From: a bacterium
GTDB lineage: Bacteria; Patescibacteriota; Minisyncoccia; Moranbacterales; UBA2206
NCBI GenBank assembly: GCA_030654225.1
Contig: JAURXY010000026.1
Span: 10,448 to 74,447, forward strand
DNA: 64,000 bases
Direction: 5' to 3'
The notes under the pieces are model-generated. The model did no database searches. It saw only the letters and a list, made by a program, of their open reading frames with translations, and was not told the DNA's origin. The position numbers were made by a program, and so were the translations under genes. Numbering within the stretch: position 1 is the stretch's first letter; the number at the start of each line of letters is the position of its first letter. Positions 8,644 to 51,643 of the stretch are shown piece by piece.

Positions 8644-8922
8644 ATGGAAACAGTGATGAAAGCAGACATTTTCTTTTTTATCTCTTCTGTGGCGACAGTT
8701 GTGCTCTCGGTATTATTTTCTATCGGCTTGTTTTATCTTATCAAAGCCGGTAGAAATTTATATCTAATTTCAGAAAAGTTGCAAGATAATTTTGAGGATT
8801 CAAAAGAGTTTATTCTAGAACTCAAAGAAAGGTTGGAAGACAACATTATCTTTCGAATGTTTTTTCCACCAGCACGAAAAAGGAAGCGCTCAGAAACGAG
8901 AGATCAAAAAAAAGCTAATTAA
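8644..8922 (+). CDS. DUF948-like small membrane stress protein
   Basis: single N-terminal TM helix followed by a coiled-coil region. Confidence 0.4.
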   Translation: METVMKADIFFFISSVATVVLSVLFSIGLFYLIKAGRNLYLISEKLQDNFEDSKEFILELKERLEDNIIFRMFFPPARKRKRSETRDQKKAN

Positions 8923-18375: not shown

Positions 18376-19557
18376 ATGTTTGAACGCACAAAAGATCTTC
18401 GACTTTCAGTGATAAAACAGATGGAACTTCGGGCTTCTAAATTTCCCGATGTCATTTCTTTGGCGCAAGGAGTGCCAAGTTTTGATACGCCGTCAGGGAT
18501 AAAAAGGCGAGTGGAGTTGGCGCTGCAAAATGGTGTTGTTTCCAAATATTCTCTTTCGCCAGGACTTTCGGAACTGCGAGAATTGATTGAGGTAAAATTG
18601 GCTGAGGATAATATGTTTTATGATTTCGAAAAAGAAATCATTGTGACGGCTGGTTCGATTGAAGGAATCACAGCGACACTTTTAGCGATTACCAATTCAG
18701 GAGATGAGATAATCATTCCTGAGCCAACCTATACCTCATATCGCGAAGTGATTGTGCTTTGCGGTTGCACTCCAGTTTTTGTAGGACTCAATGAAGAAAA
18801 AGATTGGAGTTTTGAATTGGAAAAATTTGAAAAAGCCATCACGCCCAAAACTAAAGCCATCTTCTATTGCAATCCTAATAATCCAACTGGCACTATTTAT
18901 TCCAAAGAGCAACTTTTGGGTTTGGCGGAATTAGCCAAAAAACATAATTTGTTTTTAATTTCAGATGAAGTTTATAAGGATTTTACTTTTGCGAGAAAAG
19001 AAAAAATTTTTAGTCTGGCGGAAATTCCCGAGCTTCGAAAAAGAGTCATTCGACTGTTTAGTTTTTCCAAATCATATGCCATGACGGGGTACCGTGTGGG
19101 ATATCTCCACTGCGACGAAAGTGTCGCTCAAGAAATTTTGAAAGTGCATGACTCGCTGGTCACTTGCGCGCCAGTTATCTCTCAATACGCAGCTATGGGA
19201 GCATTGGAAATGGCGGAAAAAGATGTGATTTTTTTCAATGGCGAATATCTGAAACGGCGGGATTTGATTTGCGTACGCCTCGAAAAATTAAAACATATTT
19301 TTAGCTATGTCAGACCGGAAAGCGCCTATTATGTTTTTCCAAAAATAATTAAAAATGATTTTGATTTTGGTTCGCTTGAAGCGCCGGAAAGTTTTTCGTT
19401 CAAATTTGCCTTTTGGCTTCTGGAAAAAGCTCAAGTAGCAGTTGTCCCAGGAGTGGCTTTCGGTCCAAGTGGCGAAGACCATGTTCGTTTTAGTTTTGGT
19501 CGAACAGAGCGTGACATCAACCGAGCGTTTGATAGGATGGAGAAAATATTTTTATAA
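18376..19557 (+). CDS. PLP-dependent aminotransferase class I/II
   Basis: SFSKSYAMTGYRVGY PLP-lysine region. Confidence 0.85.
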   Translation: MFERTKDLRLSVIKQMELRASKFPDVISLAQGVPSFDTPSGIKRRVELALQNGVVSKYSLSPGLSELRELIEVKLAEDNMFYDFEKEIIVTAGSIEGITATLLAITNSGDEIIIPEPTYTSYREVIVLCGCTPVFVGLNEEKDWSFELEKFEKAITPKTKAIFYCNPNNPTGTIYSKEQLLGLAELAKKHNLFLISDEVYKDFTFARKEKIFSLAEIPELRKRVIRLFSFSKSYAMTGYRVGYLHCDESVAQEILKVHDSLVTCAPVISQYAAMGALEMAEKDVIFFNGEYLKRRDLICVRLEKLKHIFSYVRPESAYYVFPKIIKNDFDFGSLEAPESFSFKFAFWLLEKAQVAVVPGVAFGPSGEDHVRFSFGRTERDINRAFDRMEKIFL

Positions 19558-19561
19558 AAAT

Positions 19562-20302
19562 ATGAAATTTTTTTGCAAAACAATTCTAAAATATTATCTG
19601 AAATATGTGACAAAAATAGTCTTGGCTGTTCATCGTCCAACAGTTATCGCAATTTCCGGCAGTTCAAACAAAACTTTCATTCGAGATGAGGTTCGAAAAA
19701 TTTTAGAGGAAAAAGGAAAAACTGTACGAGCTAATCCAAAAAATTTCAACACCGAGATTGGTTTGCCTTTGGCAATTCTTAATGTCCAGAGCGGGTATAA
19801 TTCTTATCGCGCGTGGCTTCCGATTATTTTCCAAACATTTTTGGCAATTTTTCAAAAAAACTTCCCAGAGTATTTAGTGCTGGAACTGGGTGTTTCCGAG
19901 AGAGGGGATATGCGTTATCTGCTTTCAATCGTGAGACCAAAAATTTCCATAATTTCCGAAATCAATCAGCGATATATTGAATCTTTTTCTGGAATGGACA
20001 ATTTGTTTTTGGAATACAAATATCTAGCACGACATATCAAAAAAGACGATGTACTAATTTTGAATTATGATAATGCGCGAGTAAGAAGCTTGTCTAAAAA
20101 AACCAAGGCAAGAGTGGAATTTTTTGGCAAAACTGAAAAAACAGGAATTTTTCAAATTGAAAAAATTGAAAAGCAAGTCGCGGGGCAAAAATTTTGGTTG
20201 AAACATAATAATAAAACACAAGAATTTTTTATGCCTCGCTTTGGTGAGCACAATATTTATACCTCGGCGGCGGGAAAAGTTTTTGAGTATATATTAAAAT
20301 AA
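19562..20302 (+). CDS. murF: MurF-like Mur ligase, short form (246 aa; lacks C-terminal domain)
   Basis: Mur ligase ATP-binding VIAISGSSNKT; ddl-murF synteny; stops after central domain. Confidence 0.55.
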   Translation: MKFFCKTILKYYLKYVTKIVLAVHRPTVIAISGSSNKTFIRDEVRKILEEKGKTVRANPKNFNTEIGLPLAILNVQSGYNSYRAWLPIIFQTFLAIFQKNFPEYLVLELGVSERGDMRYLLSIVRPKISIISEINQRYIESFSGMDNLFLEYKYLARHIKKDDVLILNYDNARVRSLSKKTKARVEFFGKTEKTGIFQIEKIEKQVAGQKFWLKHNNKTQEFFMPRFGEHNIYTSAAGKVFEYILK

Positions 20303-20580: not shown

Positions 20581-20664
20581 ATGGGAAAAAGTTATCCACA
20601 GCTCAAAAGTTGCCGGAAATATCACAGAGTGATATAATATCATCATAACAAACTAAATAAAGTT

Positions 20665-21663
20665 ATGAAAAACAAAAAAGAACAAAAAGAAATAATTATT
20701 TATCAGGCTAAGGATGGCGCCATCGAACTGCGTGGTGATTTTAAGCATGAAAATATTTGGGCTTCGCAAAAACAAATCGCTGATATCTTTGGAATTGATA
20801 GAACAGTAGTAACGAAGCACATTAAGAAAATTTTAACAGACAAAGAGCTTGATAAAAAAGTGGTATGTGCAAATTTTGCACAGACCACTAAGCACGGAGC
20901 AATCAAGGGTAAAACTCAAACAAAAGAAGTTGAATTTTATTCTCTCGATATGATTTTGTCTGTGGGGTATCGGACAAGTTCTTTCAAGGCTATTGAATTT
21001 AGAAAATGGGCGAATAAGATTTTGAAAGAGCATTTAATTCAAGGCTACACAATCAACAAAAAACAAATTGCCAAAAATTATGAGGCTTTTATGCAGACAG
21101 TATCTAGTATTCAAAATCTTTTGCCTGAGCATATCACGCTTGATCCAAAACTAGTTTTGGAACTAATCAAGGAATTTGCTAGCACATGGGTAGCGCTGGA
21201 TGCTTATGACAAAGAAACTCTTCGCGCAATTGGCACAACTAAAAAAGCAATCAAATTGTCAGGCAAAGAGCTAGTTGAAGCAATTATTGAGCTTCGAGGC
21301 GAACTTATGAAAAAAGGTGAGGCTTCTGATCTTTTTGCGCGAGAAAAAAGAGCTGGTAGTGTTGAGGGAATAGTGGGAAATGTAATGCAATCATTTGGTG
21401 GCAAAAATCTATATCCTACCGCTGAAGAAAAGGCGACCCATCTTTTGTATTTTATGGTGAAGAATCACCCATTCGACGACGGAAACAAACGCTCTGGTGC
21501 GTTTGCTTTTGTGTGGTTCTTGCGAAAAACAAAAATCCAAGGCGCTAAAAACATCAACCCAAGCGCGCTTACCGCCCTCACACTTTTGATTGCGGAAAGT
21601 AATCCAAAAAAGATGAATCAAATGACAGCGCTTGTCACGACACTTCTGTCAGTGAAAAAATAA
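20665..21663 (+). CDS. RhuM-family N-terminal domain fused to Fic/Doc domain (HPFDDGNKRSGA)
   Basis: RhuM-like N-terminal 120 aa; Doc-type motif HxFxDGNKR. Confidence 0.8.
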   Translation: MKNKKEQKEIIIYQAKDGAIELRGDFKHENIWASQKQIADIFGIDRTVVTKHIKKILTDKELDKKVVCANFAQTTKHGAIKGKTQTKEVEFYSLDMILSVGYRTSSFKAIEFRKWANKILKEHLIQGYTINKKQIAKNYEAFMQTVSSIQNLLPEHITLDPKLVLELIKEFASTWVALDAYDKETLRAIGTTKKAIKLSGKELVEAIIELRGELMKKGEASDLFAREKRAGSVEGIVGNVMQSFGGKNLYPTAEEKATHLLYFMVKNHPFDDGNKRSGAFAFVWFLRKTKIQGAKNINPSALTALTLLIAESNPKKMNQMTALVTTLLSVKK

Positions 21664-21670
21664 AATTCAC

Positions 21671-21695
21671 AAAACCGCTATCACTGGCGGTTTTT
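21671..21695 (+). terminator. rho-independent terminator
   Basis: AAAACCGC-TATCACTG-GCGGTTTTT. Confidence 0.7.
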
Positions 21696-21777
21696 GATTT
21701 ATTGGGGGAAAGGGGGGTAGAATGGAAGTGTTAAGTAAAGTGTTAAGTAACAAGTTCAGTAACATAAATATAAACAT

Positions 21778-21960
21778 ATGTCTATGCGAAAAATTGAGGA
21801 AAAAAATGTGAGGAAGTTAACGAGGATGGGGAGAGAGGGAAGCAGTCTCGGGATGACCATCCCAAAGGAACTCATCGGCGAACTCGGCTGGCGCGAGCGT
21901 CAGAAAGTGGTGGTGAAAAAAGTTGGGAAAAATCTTGTAATTAGTGATTGGAAAAAATAA
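21778..21960 (+). CDS. AbrB/MazE/SpoVT-family small DNA-binding protein
   Basis: SSLGMTIPKELIGELGW ... KNLVI swapped-hairpin motif. Confidence 0.6.
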   Translation: MSMRKIEEKNVRKLTRMGREGSSLGMTIPKELIGELGWRERQKVVVKKVGKNLVISDWKK

Positions 21961-21971
21961 AAAATAATTTT

Positions 21972-22943
21972 ATGAAAAATAAATTAACTTTTATTGAAGA
22001 AGAAAATAAACTAATTCCGAATAGAATAATTGAAGAGCTAGGAATTAAGAATAATCAACAAATATATTTTGAAAAGGAATCAGAATCATTAAAAGTTTTT
22101 GAAATTGTTAATAAATTGCTCGGACCTCGTGGGTTTGAGGAATTTTCCGCCGGCCAGTTTAAAGCAATAGCGGGAGGATCATTAAACTGCTCAAATAAAA
22201 TTAAAAACTATGCAACTGGGAAAGGGGCTATCTCTAAGGGTTTTACTTATATCGCAGACATTATCAAATATTGCCAGATTTGTATTGATAATTCAGTCTT
22301 GATTCCTTTGGAAAGTATAATAGAAGAATTCGAGTGGGCGAAAAAAGCTATAAATGAGGGATATATTACATTACATTCGAATGGGAAGATGAGATATGAT
22401 ATTGAAGCAATTATGGATATAACAAAAGGTTTATTGGTGGAAGTTGCATTTAAAATTGATAGTGAGAGAAAAAATATAGAAATCGAATTGAATAGAGATT
22501 TTTTTACTGGGACAAGTAATACTGATGAGGGTCAAGATATCAAGCGGATAAAATTTACTGGTGATGTTTTTATATCTCCTCGGATAAAAGTACAAATTAA
22601 GGATACTCAATATTTTATACTTATTTCAGAAAATGAATTTAATGGGCCAAGAAAAGCAGAACTTTTTATTTCATATAAAGTACATTGGAAAAAAGCCAAT
22701 ACGGGGCAAAGATTTTTTAGAAGTCTTGGTGGAAGGGGCGAGCATATATTTTCCGATTTTCCAGTTCTTAAGGGAATACGAGCCGAAAGGAGAGGATGGG
22801 CGTTAAGAGAAGATTTTAAGGAATTAAAAAAGTTTAATAAATATAAAGGAAAATCTTTTAATAATGATAATATGTATGTTTATTGGGATGATTTGCGCGA
22901 TTTGAATGATCTTTTTTCAAAATTAAAAAATCTTATTGCTTAA
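21972..22943 (+). CDS. hypothetical protein; candidate restriction endonuclease/effector partner of the LexA-MTase
   Basis: no known motif; 3-prime end overlaps the convergent MTase gene by 11 nt. Confidence 0.45.
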   Translation: MKNKLTFIEEENKLIPNRIIEELGIKNNQQIYFEKESESLKVFEIVNKLLGPRGFEEFSAGQFKAIAGGSLNCSNKIKNYATGKGAISKGFTYIADIIKYCQICIDNSVLIPLESIIEEFEWAKKAINEGYITLHSNGKMRYDIEAIMDITKGLLVEVAFKIDSERKNIEIELNRDFFTGTSNTDEGQDIKRIKFTGDVFISPRIKVQIKDTQYFILISENEFNGPRKAELFISYKVHWKKANTGQRFFRSLGGRGEHIFSDFPVLKGIRAERRGWALREDFKELKKFNKYKGKSFNNDNMYVYWDDLRDLNDLFSKLKNLIA

Positions 22944-24507
22944 TCGCTTTCATAATTTGTTTTGCTACGGCCGTAACCACAGGGACACTCACAGAATTTC
23001 CAGCTTGCTTGTATAGTGAAGAGTCAGCCAAGTTTTTTGGCAGGATAAATGTTTTTGGAAATCCTTGTAGCCTAAAACATTCAAGAGGAGTCAGTTTTCT
23101 GATTCCTTTTTTGTCTTTTATAATTGGAACATTATGTCCACCCGTTCCCATATTAGCAGTGAGAGTTGGACACACGCCTTTTTTGTTTTCCCTCACATAT
23201 TGTCTTCTCCATTGATAAACTTTTCCTCCTTCATTTACAAAATCCTTAAGTTTTTCAAAGAGTGGTTTGTCGTTATAATAATATTTTTTGTCCACATTTT
23301 TTTCCAAAAGGTCAGTGACTCTTAGTTTCAATTCTTGTGGCTCTGGAAATTCAAATTTATCTGAATAATCTTTATTCTTAAATCCGACTATATAAATTCT
23401 TTCTCGGTTTTGTGGAACATTACCATACTCCATAGTGTTTAAAACTTTAGTTTTCACATGATAGCCCAAATCTTCTAGTGTCTGGATGATTATACTAAAA
23501 GTTTTCCCGTTGTCATGACCTTTGAGATTTTTTACATTTTCCAAAAGAAATCCTTCGGGCTTTCTAGCTTCCAAAATTCTTGCAACATCAAAAAACAAAT
23601 TTCCCCGATCTTTTTCATCATTAAATCCTTTGCGATATCCTGCGATTGAAAATGCTTGGCAAGGAAAACCGCCCAAGAGAAAATCAAATTTTGGTAAATC
23701 ATCAATTTCAATTTTTCTCATATCTTCCACGATAAGTTTTGATTTTTTGAAATTCAAATCATAAGTGTTCTTGCAATATTTATCAAAATCATTTGCAAAA
23801 ACTGTTTCAAATCCTGCATTTTCAAAACCTAATCTTATACCTCCAACTCCGGCAAATAAATCTAAGGTTCTAAATAATTTTTGTTTTGAGTCGCTAGGGG
23901 TATTCTCTAAATTTCTTTTTATCTCAATAACCACCCCTCTAATCTCAACTTCTTTCCTATATATCGGCAACATTGTTTGATTGGCTGGTTGAAGTCGGAA
24001 TCTATTTTTCTCTCGGTATATTTTTTTCAAAGTGGCTTCATTGTCATCAATTATCGCGACCACTGTCTGGCCATTTTCTGCCGAAGATTGTTTTTTTATA
24101 ACCACAATGTCACCATCGAAAATTCCTTCATCAATCATGCTCGTACCCCTAACTTCGAGAGCATAATATTGTTCATCTTTTTTTATATTACCCGAAGCAA
24201 TCATCACGCTTTCTCCTATTGTTTCTATGGCTTCGATTGGCTGACCGGCAACTATTACTCCAACTAATGGAATTTTTATAAGGCTATATGGATTTTTCTT
24301 TTTCAATTCGATCCCTCTAGCTGAACTTCCATTTCTTTCGATGAATTCTTTTTTCTCCAATGCTTCTAAGTGTTGGTGAATAGTTGAAGGAGCGGAGAGT
24401 TTGAAATGTTTTCTAATTTCTTCGATAGTAGGGGATAGCCTTTTTTTATTTATATAAGATTTGATAAAATCTAGTATTTGTTTTTGTTTTTTTGTGAGAG
24501 TGGACAT
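22933..24507 (-). CDS. fusion of full LexA-like repressor (wHTH + S24 peptidase) and DNA (cytosine-5)-methyltransferase
   Basis: N-term wHTH; VAG-Q cleavage site; S24 Ser (GTSM) and Lys (ATLKK) 38 aa apart; then MTase motifs I DLFAGVGG, IV GFPCQAFS, VI ENV, VIII QNRERIYIVG, X GNSVSVPV. Confidence 0.85.
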   Translation of the reverse strand: MSTLTKKQKQILDFIKSYINKKRLSPTIEEIRKHFKLSAPSTIHQHLEALEKKEFIERNGSSARGIELKKKNPYSLIKIPLVGVIVAGQPIEAIETIGESVMIASGNIKKDEQYYALEVRGTSMIDEGIFDGDIVVIKKQSSAENGQTVVAIIDDNEATLKKIYREKNRFRLQPANQTMLPIYRKEVEIRGVVIEIKRNLENTPSDSKQKLFRTLDLFAGVGGIRLGFENAGFETVFANDFDKYCKNTYDLNFKKSKLIVEDMRKIEIDDLPKFDFLLGGFPCQAFSIAGYRKGFNDEKDRGNLFFDVARILEARKPEGFLLENVKNLKGHDNGKTFSIIIQTLEDLGYHVKTKVLNTMEYGNVPQNRERIYIVGFKNKDYSDKFEFPEPQELKLRVTDLLEKNVDKKYYYNDKPLFEKLKDFVNEGGKVYQWRRQYVRENKKGVCPTLTANMGTGGHNVPIIKDKKGIRKLTPLECFRLQGFPKTFILPKNLADSSLYKQAGNSVSVPVVTAVAKQIMKAIKQ

Positions 24508-24810
24508 ATAATTGACGCAGGATATTATTTTGTTATAATTCTATTATACCGAAAAAAAACCGAACTAGCAAAAGCGAGTTATCCACAGCACGACCCTTTG
24601 AATATTTTAAGTAAAACTAATTTTTTGTTCAGCGACATGCTAAGTAACACTTTTTTTATTAGAACTGGTTCTTGGAAAGCTTGTCGGGAATAGGGTATAG
24701 AATAAGCAACAGCTATTGACATAATAAACTCAATCAATTAAGATTATTTTACTGGGTAATTTCGAAACCCTAGTCGTTTCGTTTTTTTAATTTAATGATT
24801 TTTATTTTAT

Positions 24811-30757: not shown

Positions 30758-30931
30758 GTCTTATCCACAGCAATAAATATACGGGGGACTTGCCAAAATA
30801 ATAAAAGTGTATTAAACTAAATTTTGTAATATATAACTTAATAAAAAATCGCGACTAATTGCGAATCCGGTATTTATTCCGGAATTTTCCGCTCTGGCGG
30901 GGAATGCAAAAATCGCGCCAAAATTAAAACT

Positions 30932-46512: not shown

Positions 46513-47523
46513 ATGGAAAAAACAAATAAAAATAAAACTAGCGAACTTAGGCAGGATTTGGTGACGGGGGATTGGGTGGTGGTTTCCAAGATTCGTGCGC
46601 GTCGTCCAGATGAGTTTGCTAAAAAAGAACAAGATTTAACGCAGGATAACCTCAGCGAATGTTTGTTTTGTAATCCCGAGGAAAGTGGACAAGAAAAAGA
46701 TGTTTTGATATATAGCACAACAGATGGAGATTGGTCACTGCGAGTTTTTCCCAATAAATTTCCAGCTTTTTCTCGACCGAGTGGCGGACAAATGAAACAC
46801 AAGGAAGAGGGTCCATATTTTTGGATGGATAGCGTGGGGTATCATGAAGTAATCGTCACCAAAGATCATTGTAATCATATTGGGGAAATGGAACCTCTTT
46901 TGGTGGCAGAAATTTTGGATGCCTATCAATCGAGATATATTGATTTGATGAACAAAAAGTCCGTGAGTTACATCGACATTTTTCACAATCACGGTGCCTC
47001 AGCTGGCGCATCAATTCCTCATCCACATTCACAACTAATGGCTATTCCCGTGATCTCCCCGTATGTCAAAAGTGAATTGGATGGTGCGGAAGAATATCAC
47101 AAACAAAACAAGCATTGCGTCTATTGCGCAATGGTTGAGTGGGAAATTGAACAGAAAAAAAGAATAGTTTTTGAAAATGATGATTTTTTGCTGTTTTGTC
47201 CTTTTGCCTCGCGGGCTAATTTTGAAATGTGGCTCATTCCCAAAAAACACAAACCATATTTTGAAAGAATAACCCAAGATGAAAAAATTTCAGCCGGAGA
47301 GGTTCTTCATGAAGCAATCAAAAGACTAAGTGAAAAACTCAACAACCCTGATTTCAATTTCTATATTCACACTTCACCTTGCGATGGAAAAGATTATCCA
47401 CATTTCCATTGGCACATTGAGATTTTGCCAAAAACAAACATCTGGGCGGGATTTGAAATTTCAACGGGAGTAGAAATAATCACAATCAGTCCGGAAGACG
47501 CAGCGCAGTATTTAAAAAACTAA
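46513..47523 (+). CDS. GalT-family HIT nucleotidyltransferase (galactose-1-phosphate uridylyltransferase-like)
   Basis: Zn site CLFC; HPHSQ active-site motif; tandem HIT-like halves. Confidence 0.75.
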   Translation: MEKTNKNKTSELRQDLVTGDWVVVSKIRARRPDEFAKKEQDLTQDNLSECLFCNPEESGQEKDVLIYSTTDGDWSLRVFPNKFPAFSRPSGGQMKHKEEGPYFWMDSVGYHEVIVTKDHCNHIGEMEPLLVAEILDAYQSRYIDLMNKKSVSYIDIFHNHGASAGASIPHPHSQLMAIPVISPYVKSELDGAEEYHKQNKHCVYCAMVEWEIEQKKRIVFENDDFLLFCPFASRANFEMWLIPKKHKPYFERITQDEKISAGEVLHEAIKRLSEKLNNPDFNFYIHTSPCDGKDYPHFHWHIEILPKTNIWAGFEISTGVEIITISPEDAAQYLKN

Positions 47524-50419: not shown

Positions 50420-51643
50420 GTGAAGGATATAAAAATTATAACTGAATACTGGGGCAAAATAAATCCTTTGAAAATAGAGGACTATATTAATGTTGGAGGA
50501 TACACGGCCTTGGAAAAATTTGTTTCGAAAATGAATCCAGAAAAGGCAATTGAGGAGATTCAAAAGTCTGGTCTTTGTGGGCGCGGTGGTGCGGGTTTTC
50601 CAATGGGAGATAAATTGGGAATGGTAGCAAAACAAACTGGAGAGAAATATTTCATCTGCAACCTTGAAGAATCAGAACCGGGGACATATAAGGATAGATT
50701 GGTTGTGGATAATAATCCGCATTTGCTTTTGGAAGGAATTATAATTTCTGCACTTTCGATTGGTGCTCAAAAAGCCTATATCTACATCAATGGGAATTAT
50801 GAAAAGCAAAAAGAAATTTTGGAGATTGTAATTTTGCAAGCGAAAGAAAAAAAATATTGGGGAGAAAATATTTTGGGTTCGAAATTTAGTTTAGAAATAG
50901 AAATTTTTTCTGGCGCCGGTGCATATATTTGTGGAGAAGAAACGGCGCTCATAAATTCTATTGAGGGTAATCGCGGAGAGCCAAAAATTCGTCCACCATT
51001 TCCAACTTCGGCTGGACTTTTCGGTTGTCCAACCGCCGTGAGTAATGCAGAAACAATTTCTAATATTCCCTGGATAATTTCTAATGGTGGGAAGAAGTAT
51101 TCAATTATTGGCTCAAAAAATTCCCCTGGGACAAAGCTTTTTCTTTTGAATGGTGCTGTAGCAAAGCCAGGGTGCTATGAAGCACCAACCGGAATAACAG
51201 TTAAAAAATTAATTGACGATTACGCTGGCGGAATAAAAAGAGGTAAAGAATTTTGGTTTGCGCAAATTGGTGGCGCTTGTGGAAAATTACTTTTAGAAAA
51301 AGAACTAAAAGCTAAAATGGAATTTGGCAAAGAATGTGAATGTTCGCTAGGCTCCGGATCAATTTTAGTGGTGGATAAAAGTGTCAATATTCATGACCTC
51401 CTTATTTCTTGGACAGATTTTTTTCGTCGAGAATCTTGTGGAAAATGTGTACCTTGTCGAGAAGGAACTTTTCGGCTGTGGGAAATAGCTAAAAGATTTC
51501 GTGACGGTGAAATTTCCGATCGCGACAAAGAAGCGATTCAAGATATTTTATGGACACTGGACAATACGACTTTTTGCCCATTGGGAAAATTCGCCGGAAC
51601 CGCGTTTCGGGATGCAGTGGGAAAAGGTATAGTGAAATTTTAA
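50420..51643 (+). CDS. NuoF/HoxF-like NAD(H)/FMN-binding subunit
   Basis: GRGGAGFPMG; 4Fe-4S ESCGKCVPCREG. Confidence 0.85.
   Translation: MKDIKIITEYWGKINPLKIEDYINVGGYTALEKFVSKMNPEKAIEEIQKSGLCGRGGAGFPMGDKLGMVAKQTGEKYFICNLEESEPGTYKDRLVVDNNPHLLLEGIIISALSIGAQKAYIYINGNYEKQKEILEIVILQAKEKKYWGENILGSKFSLEIEIFSGAGAYICGEETALINSIEGNRGEPKIRPPFPTSAGLFGCPTAVSNAETISNIPWIISNGGKKYSIIGSKNSPGTKLFLLNGAVAKPGCYEAPTGITVKKLIDDYAGGIKRGKEFWFAQIGGACGKLLLEKELKAKMEFGKECECSLGSGSILVVDKSVNIHDLLISWTDFFRRESCGKCVPCREGTFRLWEIAKRFRDGEISDRDKEAIQDILWTLDNTTFCPLGKFAGTAFRDAVGKGIVKF

Follow-up and report, generated by a model that had tools for sequence, protein, structure and literature searches.

A LexA-C5 cytosine methyltransferase fusion in a probable type II restriction-modification cassette of Patescibacteria

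Introduction

Type II restriction-modification (R-M) systems balance their methyltransferase (MTase; M) against their restriction endonuclease (REase; R) by means of controller proteins (C-proteins), short helix-turn-helix (HTH) extensions on the MTase, or antisense transcription, and, to our knowledge, none of these three modes senses DNA damage directly. The present work deals with a stretch of 64,000 nucleotides (nt), referred to here as the window (GenBank assembly GCA_030654225.1, contig JAURXY010000026.1, positions 10,448 to 74,447 of the forward strand), from a bacterium of the Patescibacteria lineage Moranbacterales, in which one gene encodes a LexA repressor fused to a C5 cytosine MTase and meets, tail to tail, the gene of a predicted nuclease. 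The Patescibacteria combine tiny genomes with a heavy reliance on R-M for defence.

Other links between self-toxic modules and the SOS response are known. Type I R-M systems undergo ClpXP-dependent restriction alleviation, in which the protease removes HsdR. Unbalanced R-M systems are known to induce SOS, and LexA represses several toxin-antitoxin (TA) loci, such as tisB-istR1, symE-symR, dinJ-yafQ, and yafN-yafO (PMC3874152). The closest described relatives in design are the MTases M.EcoRII, M.SsoII, M.Ecl18kI, and M.ScrFI, which carry an N-terminal HTH, with M repressing its own gene (PMC3874152).

The fusion resembles these HTH-MTases in having an N-terminal DNA-binding domain on a C5 MTase and an operator, here a predicted one, that overlaps the M promoter, and the same logic, in which autorepression sets the M/R balance, is proposed for it. 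Unlike them, its regulator is a complete LexA of about 200 amino acids (aa), with an S24 autoprotease, a cleavage bond, and a catalytic dyad, its predicted operator is a direct repeat of period 11 common to free lexA genes, and it would add a DNA-damage (RecA) input that is absent from the known HTH-MTases; R is convergent to the fusion, whereas it is divergent in SsoII/Ecl18kI. On the Pfam assignment of its N-terminal region to LexA_DNA_bind plus Peptidase_S24, common descent with the regulatory region of SsoII/EcoRII is unlikely, and the fusion may be seen as working like the HTH-MTase autoregulators rather than as a member of their group. As in the LexA-repressed TA loci and type I alleviation, a self-toxic module would be coupled to SOS and restriction relieved after damage, although in those systems the host LexA acts in trans on a promoter, or a protease is employed, whereas in the cassette the protective enzyme has the repressor built covalently into its own chain.

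On balance, the reading favoured here is that of a type II R-M cassette, probably specific for GCNGC, in which M would be autorepressed through its LexA moiety and released by RecA-stimulated self-cleavage.

Architecture of the fusion protein

The gene and its parts are as follows.

22933..24507, minus strand: LexA-S24-C5 MTase fusion gene, the M of the cassette (open reading frame (ORF), Pfam, NCBIfam, homologous clusters)
24313..24507, minus strand: LexA winged HTH (wHTH), aa 1-65 (PF01726, profile positions 1-65 of 65)
24244..24249, minus strand: Ala87-Gly88 codons, the predicted self-cleavage bond (alignment to Escherichia coli LexA)
23926..24270, minus strand: S24 autoprotease and dimerisation domain, aa 80-194 (PF00717, positions 1-116 of 116)
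24139-24141, minus strand: Ser123 codon, S24 dyad
24025-24027, minus strand: Lys161 codon, S24 dyad
23875..23916, minus strand: polar S24-MTase linker, approximately aa 198-211 (junction comparison across homologues; low predicted local distance difference test (pLDDT) score)
22948..23874, minus strand: C5 cytosine MTase domain, aa 212-520 (PF00145, positions 1-324 of 324)
23659-23661, minus strand: catalytic Cys283 codon (motif GFPCQ)

The ORF is uninterrupted in the window, begins with ATG, and encodes 524 aa, along which three Pfam profiles are covered in full, namely LexA_DNA_bind (PF01726; aa 1-65, 66.5 bits), Peptidase_S24 (PF00717; aa 80-194, 100.8 bits), and DNA_methylase (PF00145; aa 212-520, 323.6 bits). 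The NCBIfam equivalog model of lexA, TIGR00498, matches aa 1-200 with 187.4 bits against a cutoff of 110.95, the dcm model TIGR00675 matches aa 215-518 with 349.6 bits, and PADLOC identifies the MTase as MTase_II (425 bits). In comparisons with solved structures, the first 200 aa align over their whole length with the LexA proteins of Thermotoga and E. coli, with A84-G85, S119, and K156 of the latter corresponding to A87-G88, S123, and K161 of the fusion, and the best match of the MTase half is M.HhaI, at 203 bits. The MTase motifs FAGxGG (218-223), GFPCQ (280-284), ENV (323-325), QNRER (366-370), and GNSV (503-506) are invariant in 40 homologues, and the target recognition domain (TRD) lies at approximately aa 379-469. 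Of the LexA traits that can be tested on a sequence, the only one in which the fusion departs is the stand-alone form of about 200 aa, given its 524 aa and C-terminal MTase.

An earlier reading of the window, made from the sequence only, had described a single 524-aa ORF with an intact LexA, including the Ala-Gly site and the Ser/Lys dyad, followed by a complete C5 MTase with motifs I, IV, VI, VIII, and X, and each of these elements was recovered in the profile searches and alignments. The same reading had supposed that self-cleavage could detach the DNA-targeting domain, which holds for the wHTH alone, since only this part would be lost at A87-G88, and the S24 dimerisation domain would stay on the MTase.

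In an AlphaFold2 (AF2) model, the wHTH (pLDDT 76-88) and the MTase are confidently predicted, and aa 200-208 of the linker fall below a pLDDT of 50; across the homologues, this linker has 14-20 polar aa that vary in both length and sequence.

Spread and conservation of the fusion

The family figures were drawn from the 120 best-scoring database clusters, and the total is thus a lower bound. At least 120 protein clusters, 70-96% identical and 513-550 aa long, contain all three domains; their source assemblies (NCBI, JGI, ENA, and Logan) are independent of one another, and nearly all the clusters are from Patescibacteria. The full fusion was also found in at least 16 GTDB species-representative genomes among the matches listed. 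Where a source name is given, it is either “transcriptional repressor LexA”, in clusters of Moranbacteria, Parcubacteria, Paceibacterota, and Patescibacteria, or “DNA (cytosine-5)-methyltransferase 1”. The exact sequence of the window fusion had no record in the lookup, and homologues were used in its place.

In the alignment of C5 fusions, the scissile Ala is kept in 122 of 123 sequences and the Gly in all 123, and the S24 Ser and Lys are invariant both in the 123 fusions and in the 27 other LexA sequences sampled. The persistence of the Ala-Gly bond and of the Ser/Lys dyad in 122-123 of 123 fusions suggests selection on cleavage.

The literature searches for a LexA-MTase fusion returned no publication that describes one, and the architecture is apparently widespread in the databases and uncharacterised as far as the searchable literature shows. 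The claim of the sequence-only reading that the architecture is undescribed therefore stands with regard to published work, but not as a claim of rarity, given the 120 or more automatically annotated clusters. A phage-CI-like or plasmid origin is not supported, because the phage, IMG/VR, and plasmid collections yielded matches to the MTase half only, with no record covering at least 80% of the fusion.

A number of contigs with Patescibacteria-type fusion or Dcm genes (the collected loci L012, L013, L015, L019, L026, L031, and others) are titled as Bdellovibrionales, Gammaproteobacteria, Promethearchaeota (Loki_b32), Micrarchaeota, or ‘Helicobacter pylori’ metagenome-assembled genomes (MAGs), which probably reflects taxonomic mislabelling or mis-binning.

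The convergent nuclease and its exchangeable counterparts

The partner of the fusion in the window is the following gene.

21972..22943, plus strand: 323-aa PD-(D/E)xK-fold nuclease, candidate R (fold match; convergent to the fusion)

The nuclease gene ends at 22943 and the fusion at 22933, so that the two share 11 nt (22933-22943), and both this convergent overlap and the suggestion that the 323-aa partner is a candidate REase, as proposed from the sequence alone, agree with the gene coordinates and with the predicted fold. Residues E157, D189, and Q208-x-K210 are invariant and lie on the helix and strands expected for an E...D...(E/Q)xK motif, a pattern from which a catalytic role may be proposed. 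The family matches no Pfam, NCBIfam, or PADLOC model, and its members are always found tail to tail with a C5 MTase, which carries a LexA part in three of the loci (the window, L002, and L087) and none in L090.

A convergent gene lies within -14 to +26 nt of the M stop in 20 of 20 C5-fusion loci, and the partner genes of these loci, all convergent, belong to at least six unrelated families.

323-aa family
281-299-aa family
277-aa family
PDDEXK_5 family, 148 aa (Pfam)
RE_Bsp6I family, about 188 aa (Pfam)
NgoFVII-B3-like protein, 379 aa (Pfam)
345-aa protein

The cassette is one in which M is stable and R replaceable, and in L007, L008, and L009 an M gene 95% identical to that of the window is accompanied, in each case, by a different partner. 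The pairing of an MTase gene with an adjoining nuclease-type gene, as is expected of an R-M system, is kept in 20 of 20 C5 fusions and in six of six other fusions, and the partner in the window is predicted to be an endonuclease by its PD-(D/E)xK fold.

Vsr mismatch endonucleases are the usual companions of 5-methylcytosine (m5C) MTases, and a vsr gene lies divergently upstream of the fusion in L002, L004, and L033; neither a vsr gene nor a remnant of one was found in the window.

Promoter and predicted operator

The segment that the sequence-only reading had covered stops just short of the fusion promoter and its predicted operator (24543-24589).

24543..24571, minus strand: sigma-70-type promoter, -35 TTGCTA (24571-24566), 17-nt spacer, -10 TATAAT (24548-24543) (promoter scan, 10/12 match)
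24549..24564, minus strand: predicted LexA operator TTCGG-N6-TTCGG, a direct repeat of period 11 (comparison of promoters)
24579..24587, minus strand: DnaA-box-like 9-mer TGTGGATAA, approximately 10 nt upstream of the -35 (kept in the promoter alignment)
24525..24557, no strand assigned: imperfect inverted repeat over the -10 and the region of the transcript start (arms 24525-24539 and 24543-24557, 80% complementary; weak evidence)

Sixteen fusion promoters with unrelated flanks could be aligned, and they share a layout of -35 TTGCTA or TTGCAC, TTCGG-N6-TTCGG, and -10 TATAAT, with both TTCGG half-sites invariant in all 16; in the window, the box fills the 17-nt spacer between the -35 and the -10. 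A census over 719 kb of locus DNA, in which a box was counted at up to 260 nt upstream of a lexA-type gene, located every exact copy in this position, whether the gene was fused or free. With one mismatch at most, the box precedes 17 of 22 C5 fusions, five of six other fusions, and 37 of 45 free lexA genes, and it is absent from the stand-alone Dcm relatives.

Free LexAs of about 198-212 aa also occur in the Patescibacteria, among the collected loci in lineages of the WWE3 and Komeilibacteria type. They are 42-55% identical to the LexA part of the fusion and share its order of domains and its catalytic residues; their recognition helix is similar, with the segment LSAPSTIHQHL of the fusion recurring nearly unchanged, and their own promoters have TTCGG-N6-TTCGG and often TGTGGATAA. 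In the fusion, by contrast, a short linker leads on to a 310-aa MTase, the LexA module falls into a separate clade, and there is always a convergent nuclease-type neighbour. We know of no lexA gene that, once studied, proved not to be autoregulated. Given the box common to the fused and free lexA promoters, this autoregulation, and the similar recognition helix, the direct repeat is read as the predicted LexA operator of the Patescibacteria, and the fusion would thus have, as autoregulated lexA genes do, an operator within its own promoter. The form of the repeat recalls the alphaproteobacterial LexA box, GTTC-N7-GTTC.

Compared with the window, 13 other fusion loci show DNA homology whose upstream limit is 24588/24589, approximately 80 bp upstream of the fusion ATG, in nine loci and 24513-24572 in four, and which ends at the M stop codon (about 22940). 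The upstream edge of this conserved unit is marked by the 9-mer TGTGGATAA at 24579-24587, a perfect DnaA box of which the window has five copies against 0.49 expected, the others being at 20592-20600, 30761-30769, 47394-47402, and 50704-50712. In the collected loci, the 9-mer is enriched approximately 57-fold within 260 nt upstream of lexA-type genes, where it precedes 12 of 19 C5 fusions, six of six other fusions, and 15 of 45 free lexA genes, and through it DnaA might act on lexA promoters, or it might serve as a second element of the operator.

The more distant C5 fusions (67-70% identical) in L018, L019, and L020/L021 do not have TTCGG-N6-TTCGG. Period-11 direct repeats with both half-sites altered together (TTCGC...TTCGC; TTTCT...TTTCT) were seen by eye at these loci, which could be a case of co-variation between the operator and the DNA-binding domain. 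Inverted repeats resembling that of the window were also noted by eye at other loci.

Recognition sequence

M.Bsp6I methylates GCNGC (PMC2790894), and NgoFVII cuts GCSGC (PMC4081073). The nuclease types of Bsp6I/Fnu4HI-type GCNGC systems and of NgoFVII-type GCSGC systems occupy the partner position in the sister loci of the fusion, although the 323-aa nuclease of the window belongs to neither family. The TRD of the fusion is 45-60% identical to those of many relatives, which include MTases fused to Bsp6I-type REase domains. The depletion of GCNGC, expressed as the ratio of observed to expected sites (O/E), was compared between groups of loci, with CGNCG as a control.

GCNGC, window: O/E 0.39 (47 observed, 121 expected)
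GCNGC, other C5-fusion loci: O/E 0.57
GCNGC, loci of LexA-less relatives: O/E 0.57
GCNGC, free-LexA Patescibacteria DNA (348 kb): O/E 1.00
CGNCG, all groups: O/E 0.85-1.09

GCNGC depletion thus tracks the C5 MTase family of the fusion, and the cassette itself contains no GCNGC site. Given the Bsp6I- and NgoFVII-type partners of the sister loci, the similarity of the TRD, and the avoidance of GCNGC, a type II R-M cassette specific for GCNGC is the probable identity of the system. An M.HhaI-like GCGC specificity was rejected, with GCGC not depleted (O/E 1.02) and the TRD poorly aligned to that of M.HhaI. The closest plasmid-borne MTase (Bacillus subtilis, CP121713) has no REase annotated as its neighbour and gave no guidance on specificity.

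In two proteins, P0249 and P0306, an N-terminal Bsp6I-type REase domain and a related C5 MTase were observed in a single chain.

Other LexA-methyltransferase fusions

LexA plus S24 is also fused to a second C5 family (L033), to beta-class N4/N6 MTases (L036, L038, L039, and L065), to gamma-class, Eco57I-like N6 MTases (L037 and P0295), and to a composite of C5 and Eco57I-like MTases (P0266), so that the partners in the sample are MTases only, of four unrelated families. A convergent gene abuts the 3' end in all six of the cases derived from loci (L033, L036-L039, and L065), and most of these fusions share the TTCGG-N6-TTCGG box. The fusions of the beta, gamma, and second C5 classes likewise keep the Ala-Gly bond, the Ser, and the Lys, with the identity of the LexA module down to about 50%. 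In a neighbour-joining tree, the fused LexA modules, whatever the class of the MTase, form one clade apart from the free LexAs, in 97 of 100 bootstraps.

The species-representative genomes were scanned with the pattern KKQKQILD, which is found in fused and free LexAs alike, so that a genome with both should yield two loci. Among the matches listed, and with the reservation that MAGs are incomplete, 22 genomes had a fused LexA, 45 a free LexA, and none had both; the window, for its part, yielded no second LexA or Dcm. The fused protein may therefore be the only LexA, and hence the SOS repressor, of its genome. A wider proposal, put forward tentatively and with less confidence than the cassette itself, is that the sole LexA is MTase-fused across a large share of the Patescibacteria, and that LexA plus S24 travels together with its promoter and operator as a portable, SOS-gated controller. 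At least four MTase families (m5C, m4C/m6A beta, and m6A gamma) would have acquired it from one another, and at least six unrelated nuclease families would have been exchanged beneath it.

Proposed mechanism and alternative explanations

In the mechanism proposed for the cassette, a LexA-M dimer would bind the box in its own promoter and repress the M gene. DNA damage, which may include double-strand breaks made by the nuclease of the cassette itself when methylation lags, would give rise to RecA filaments, and these would stimulate S24 self-cleavage at A87-G88. The wHTH would then be released, the remaining S24-MTase dimer would be unable to bind the operator, and the derepression of the M promoter would raise MTase activity. 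The stronger transcription of M would also depress the expression of R, as is suggested by the tail-to-tail overlap of the two genes, between which no terminator was found. The net effect would be an SOS-triggered alleviation of restriction, or a brake on autoimmunity, in a type II system, and the fused protein may double as the cell's sole LexA and thus as its SOS repressor, given that, among the matches listed, no species-representative genome had both a fused and a free LexA. The suggestion that an R-M-like module is tied to the SOS response, made in the sequence-only reading, is strengthened by the predicted operator, the nuclease fold, the REases of the sister loci, and the avoidance of GCNGC.

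A number of points weigh against this reading. DNA binding, self-cleavage, methylation, and restriction are all predicted for the cassette proteins from their sequences, and the operator is identified by comparison. The attached MTase might hinder RecA docking or dimerisation, the S24 core being poorly modelled by AF2 (pLDDT about 30-60), probably owing to a shallow alignment. Transcriptional interference on R is pure conjecture, and the terminator-like hairpin at 23083-23110 does not exceed shuffled expectation. The stability of the S24-MTase fragment would set the direction of the feedback, and if the fragment were degraded, damage would lower methylation instead. A wider LexA regulon, if there is one, would have to be argued from a single exact TTCGG-N6-TTCGG copy in the 64-kb window, where the further LexA boxes sought were only one-mismatch matches at chance level, and from a recA that would lie outside the window, since none was found within it. 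GGCC (64 observed, 127 expected) and ACGT (24 observed, 64 expected) are also depleted in the window, so that the assignment to GCNGC is probable, not proven. ACGT depletion is seen in the fusion-bearing loci and not in the free-LexA loci, and the two depletions suggest that other R-M systems have exerted, or still exert, pressure in the lineage.

Four other explanations can be set against the cassette. The fusion might be a housekeeping SOS repressor with a passenger MTase, lying at an insertion hot spot for unrelated nuclease genes, in which LexA cleavage would serve the SOS regulon and have no adaptive R-M link. This would accord with a LexA half that scores above the NCBIfam equivalog cutoff, an operator shared with the free LexAs and a similar recognition helix, the absence, among the matches listed, of genomes with both kinds of LexA, and the one-flank synteny between the window and L007, which suggests vertical inheritance. 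However, LexA plus S24 is found on four unrelated MTase families and, in the sample, on nothing else, the convergent neighbour abuts the stop in every locus-derived fusion examined, and all the fused modules form the single clade described above; such recurrence makes a chance passenger unlikely, although this explanation is partly compatible with the cassette, and both roles could coexist. Less probable again is a LexA part that acts as a DNA-binding and dimerising autoregulator in the manner of a C-protein, with an S24 domain that does not cleave and no SOS input. MTases with N-terminal HTH autoregulators that have no protease function do exist (PMC3874152), the S24 model is not confident, and the RecA-dependence of the fusion is itself a prediction, but the Ala-Gly, Ser, and Lys persist in 122-123 of 123 C5 fusions and in the other classes, at identities down to about 50%, and residues that serve catalysis only would drift if cleavage were dispensable.

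The two remaining explanations carry far less weight. An orphan epigenetic MTase, tethered by LexA to SOS boxes and methylating the nearby sites, with convergent genes that are not REases, would fit the lack of GCNGC sites in the cassette and the several partner families that match neither Pfam nor PADLOC, and yet it is highly improbable, considering that the partners include the REase families RE_Bsp6I, NgoFVII-like, and PDDEXK_5, that the partner in the window has a nuclease fold, that the avoidance of GCNGC indicates restriction pressure, and that the 323-aa family is also paired with a LexA-less Dcm (L090). As the window comes from a MAG, an assembly or frameshift artefact that joined neighbouring genes might also be imagined, and a frameshift or stop between the LexA and MTase parts was among the faults that, according to the sequence-only reading, would have spoken against it. 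No such break was found, and the artefact, whose probability is practically nil, is refuted by the same frame and a like junction length in at least 120 clusters (NCBI, JGI, ENA, and Logan) and in at least 16 GTDB species representatives.

A RecA-cleavable LexA-MTase would, if the cassette reading is correct, close the loop between damage and restriction within one polypeptide and provide restriction alleviation to a type II system. The recurrence on three chemical classes of MTase, together with the free exchange of nucleases even where M is 95% identical, points to a modular and selectable design. If the fused protein is the only LexA of its genome, SOS control would be physically coupled to genome methylation in a major bacterial radiation, and if the portable controller exists, it would constitute a new class of R-M regulation, with damage-triggered alleviation in type II systems, and also an instance of a selfish cassette that has captured, or become, the master switch of the host SOS response. 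In practical terms, the loci are a source of predicted GCNGC isoschizomers of unrelated folds, the 323-aa family among them, and of what is predicted to be a ready-made, self-cleaving, damage-responsive regulatory module.

The AbrB-like gene upstream of the nuclease

Two further features precede the nuclease gene.

21778..21960, plus strand: 60-aa AbrB/MazE-type small DNA-binding protein, upstream of R (PF04014)
21694..21749, plus strand: promoter-like TTGATT-18-TAGAAT (21694-21723), followed by AAGTGTTAAGTA twice in tandem (21726-21749), a purely conjectural candidate operator for the AbrB-like protein

The ORF scores 25.4 bits against the PF04014 cutoff of 24.7. The sequence-only reading had presented an AbrB-type gene that overlaps the 323-aa gene in the position of a C-controller; the AbrB type was upheld, but the gene lies 11 nt from the ATG at 21972, and an overlap arises only with a TTG start at 21948. 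The start is probably this ATG, which yields 323 aa, as in P0121, a 100%-identical NCBI protein from a MAG. The controller position is likewise real in the window and in L002 (62 aa), the only locus compared that shares both the nuclease and the AbrB-like gene with the window, but it is not general, being empty in L087 and L090. Possibly, the AbrB-like protein is a controller of R, with the AAGTGTTAAGTA tandem repeat as its candidate operator. Upstream of the gene in L002, a perfect palindrome of 18 bp, GATATCTACGTAGATATC, takes the place of the tandem repeat of the window.

In having a small DNA-binding protein upstream of R, the window resembles the C-protein systems (such as PvuII, AhdI, and Kpn2I), and in AhdI the M and C-R units are also convergent (PMC2275141). 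Unlike those systems, however, the small protein is of the AbrB/MazE type rather than HTH_3/HTH_31, and it does not accompany the nuclease family consistently; no C-box search was made. An HTH_31 protein does lie upstream of R in the sister locus L004. The role of antitoxin to the adjoining Fic/DOC protein, prompted by a weak doc_partner match, was judged less likely, since a terminator separates the genes and since L002 has the AbrB-like gene together with R and M but no Fic gene.

A tRNA 3' end is a typical site of island insertion, and the AbrB-R-M cassette of L002 was seen by eye to lie beside an apparent tRNA 3' end and a terminator (L002 ~8731-8900).

Genomic neighbourhood

The cassette is adjoined, at 20665-21663 on the plus strand of the window, by a gene for a protein that contains RhuM and Fic/DOC domains (Pfam) and that matches the PADLOC defence candidate PDC-S23 over its full length (360 bits), and 20586-24589 has the look of a small defence islet that was inserted immediately upstream of the rpsL-rpsG-fusA operon. 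The window shares synteny with L007 at 18743-20298. With L009 it shares a 91-bp intergenic segment that contains GCTGTGGATAAC (window 20586-20676, L009 7494-7584), at 98% identity compared with 91% for the M gene. The 91-bp segment and the L007 synteny may indicate the border of a variable island.

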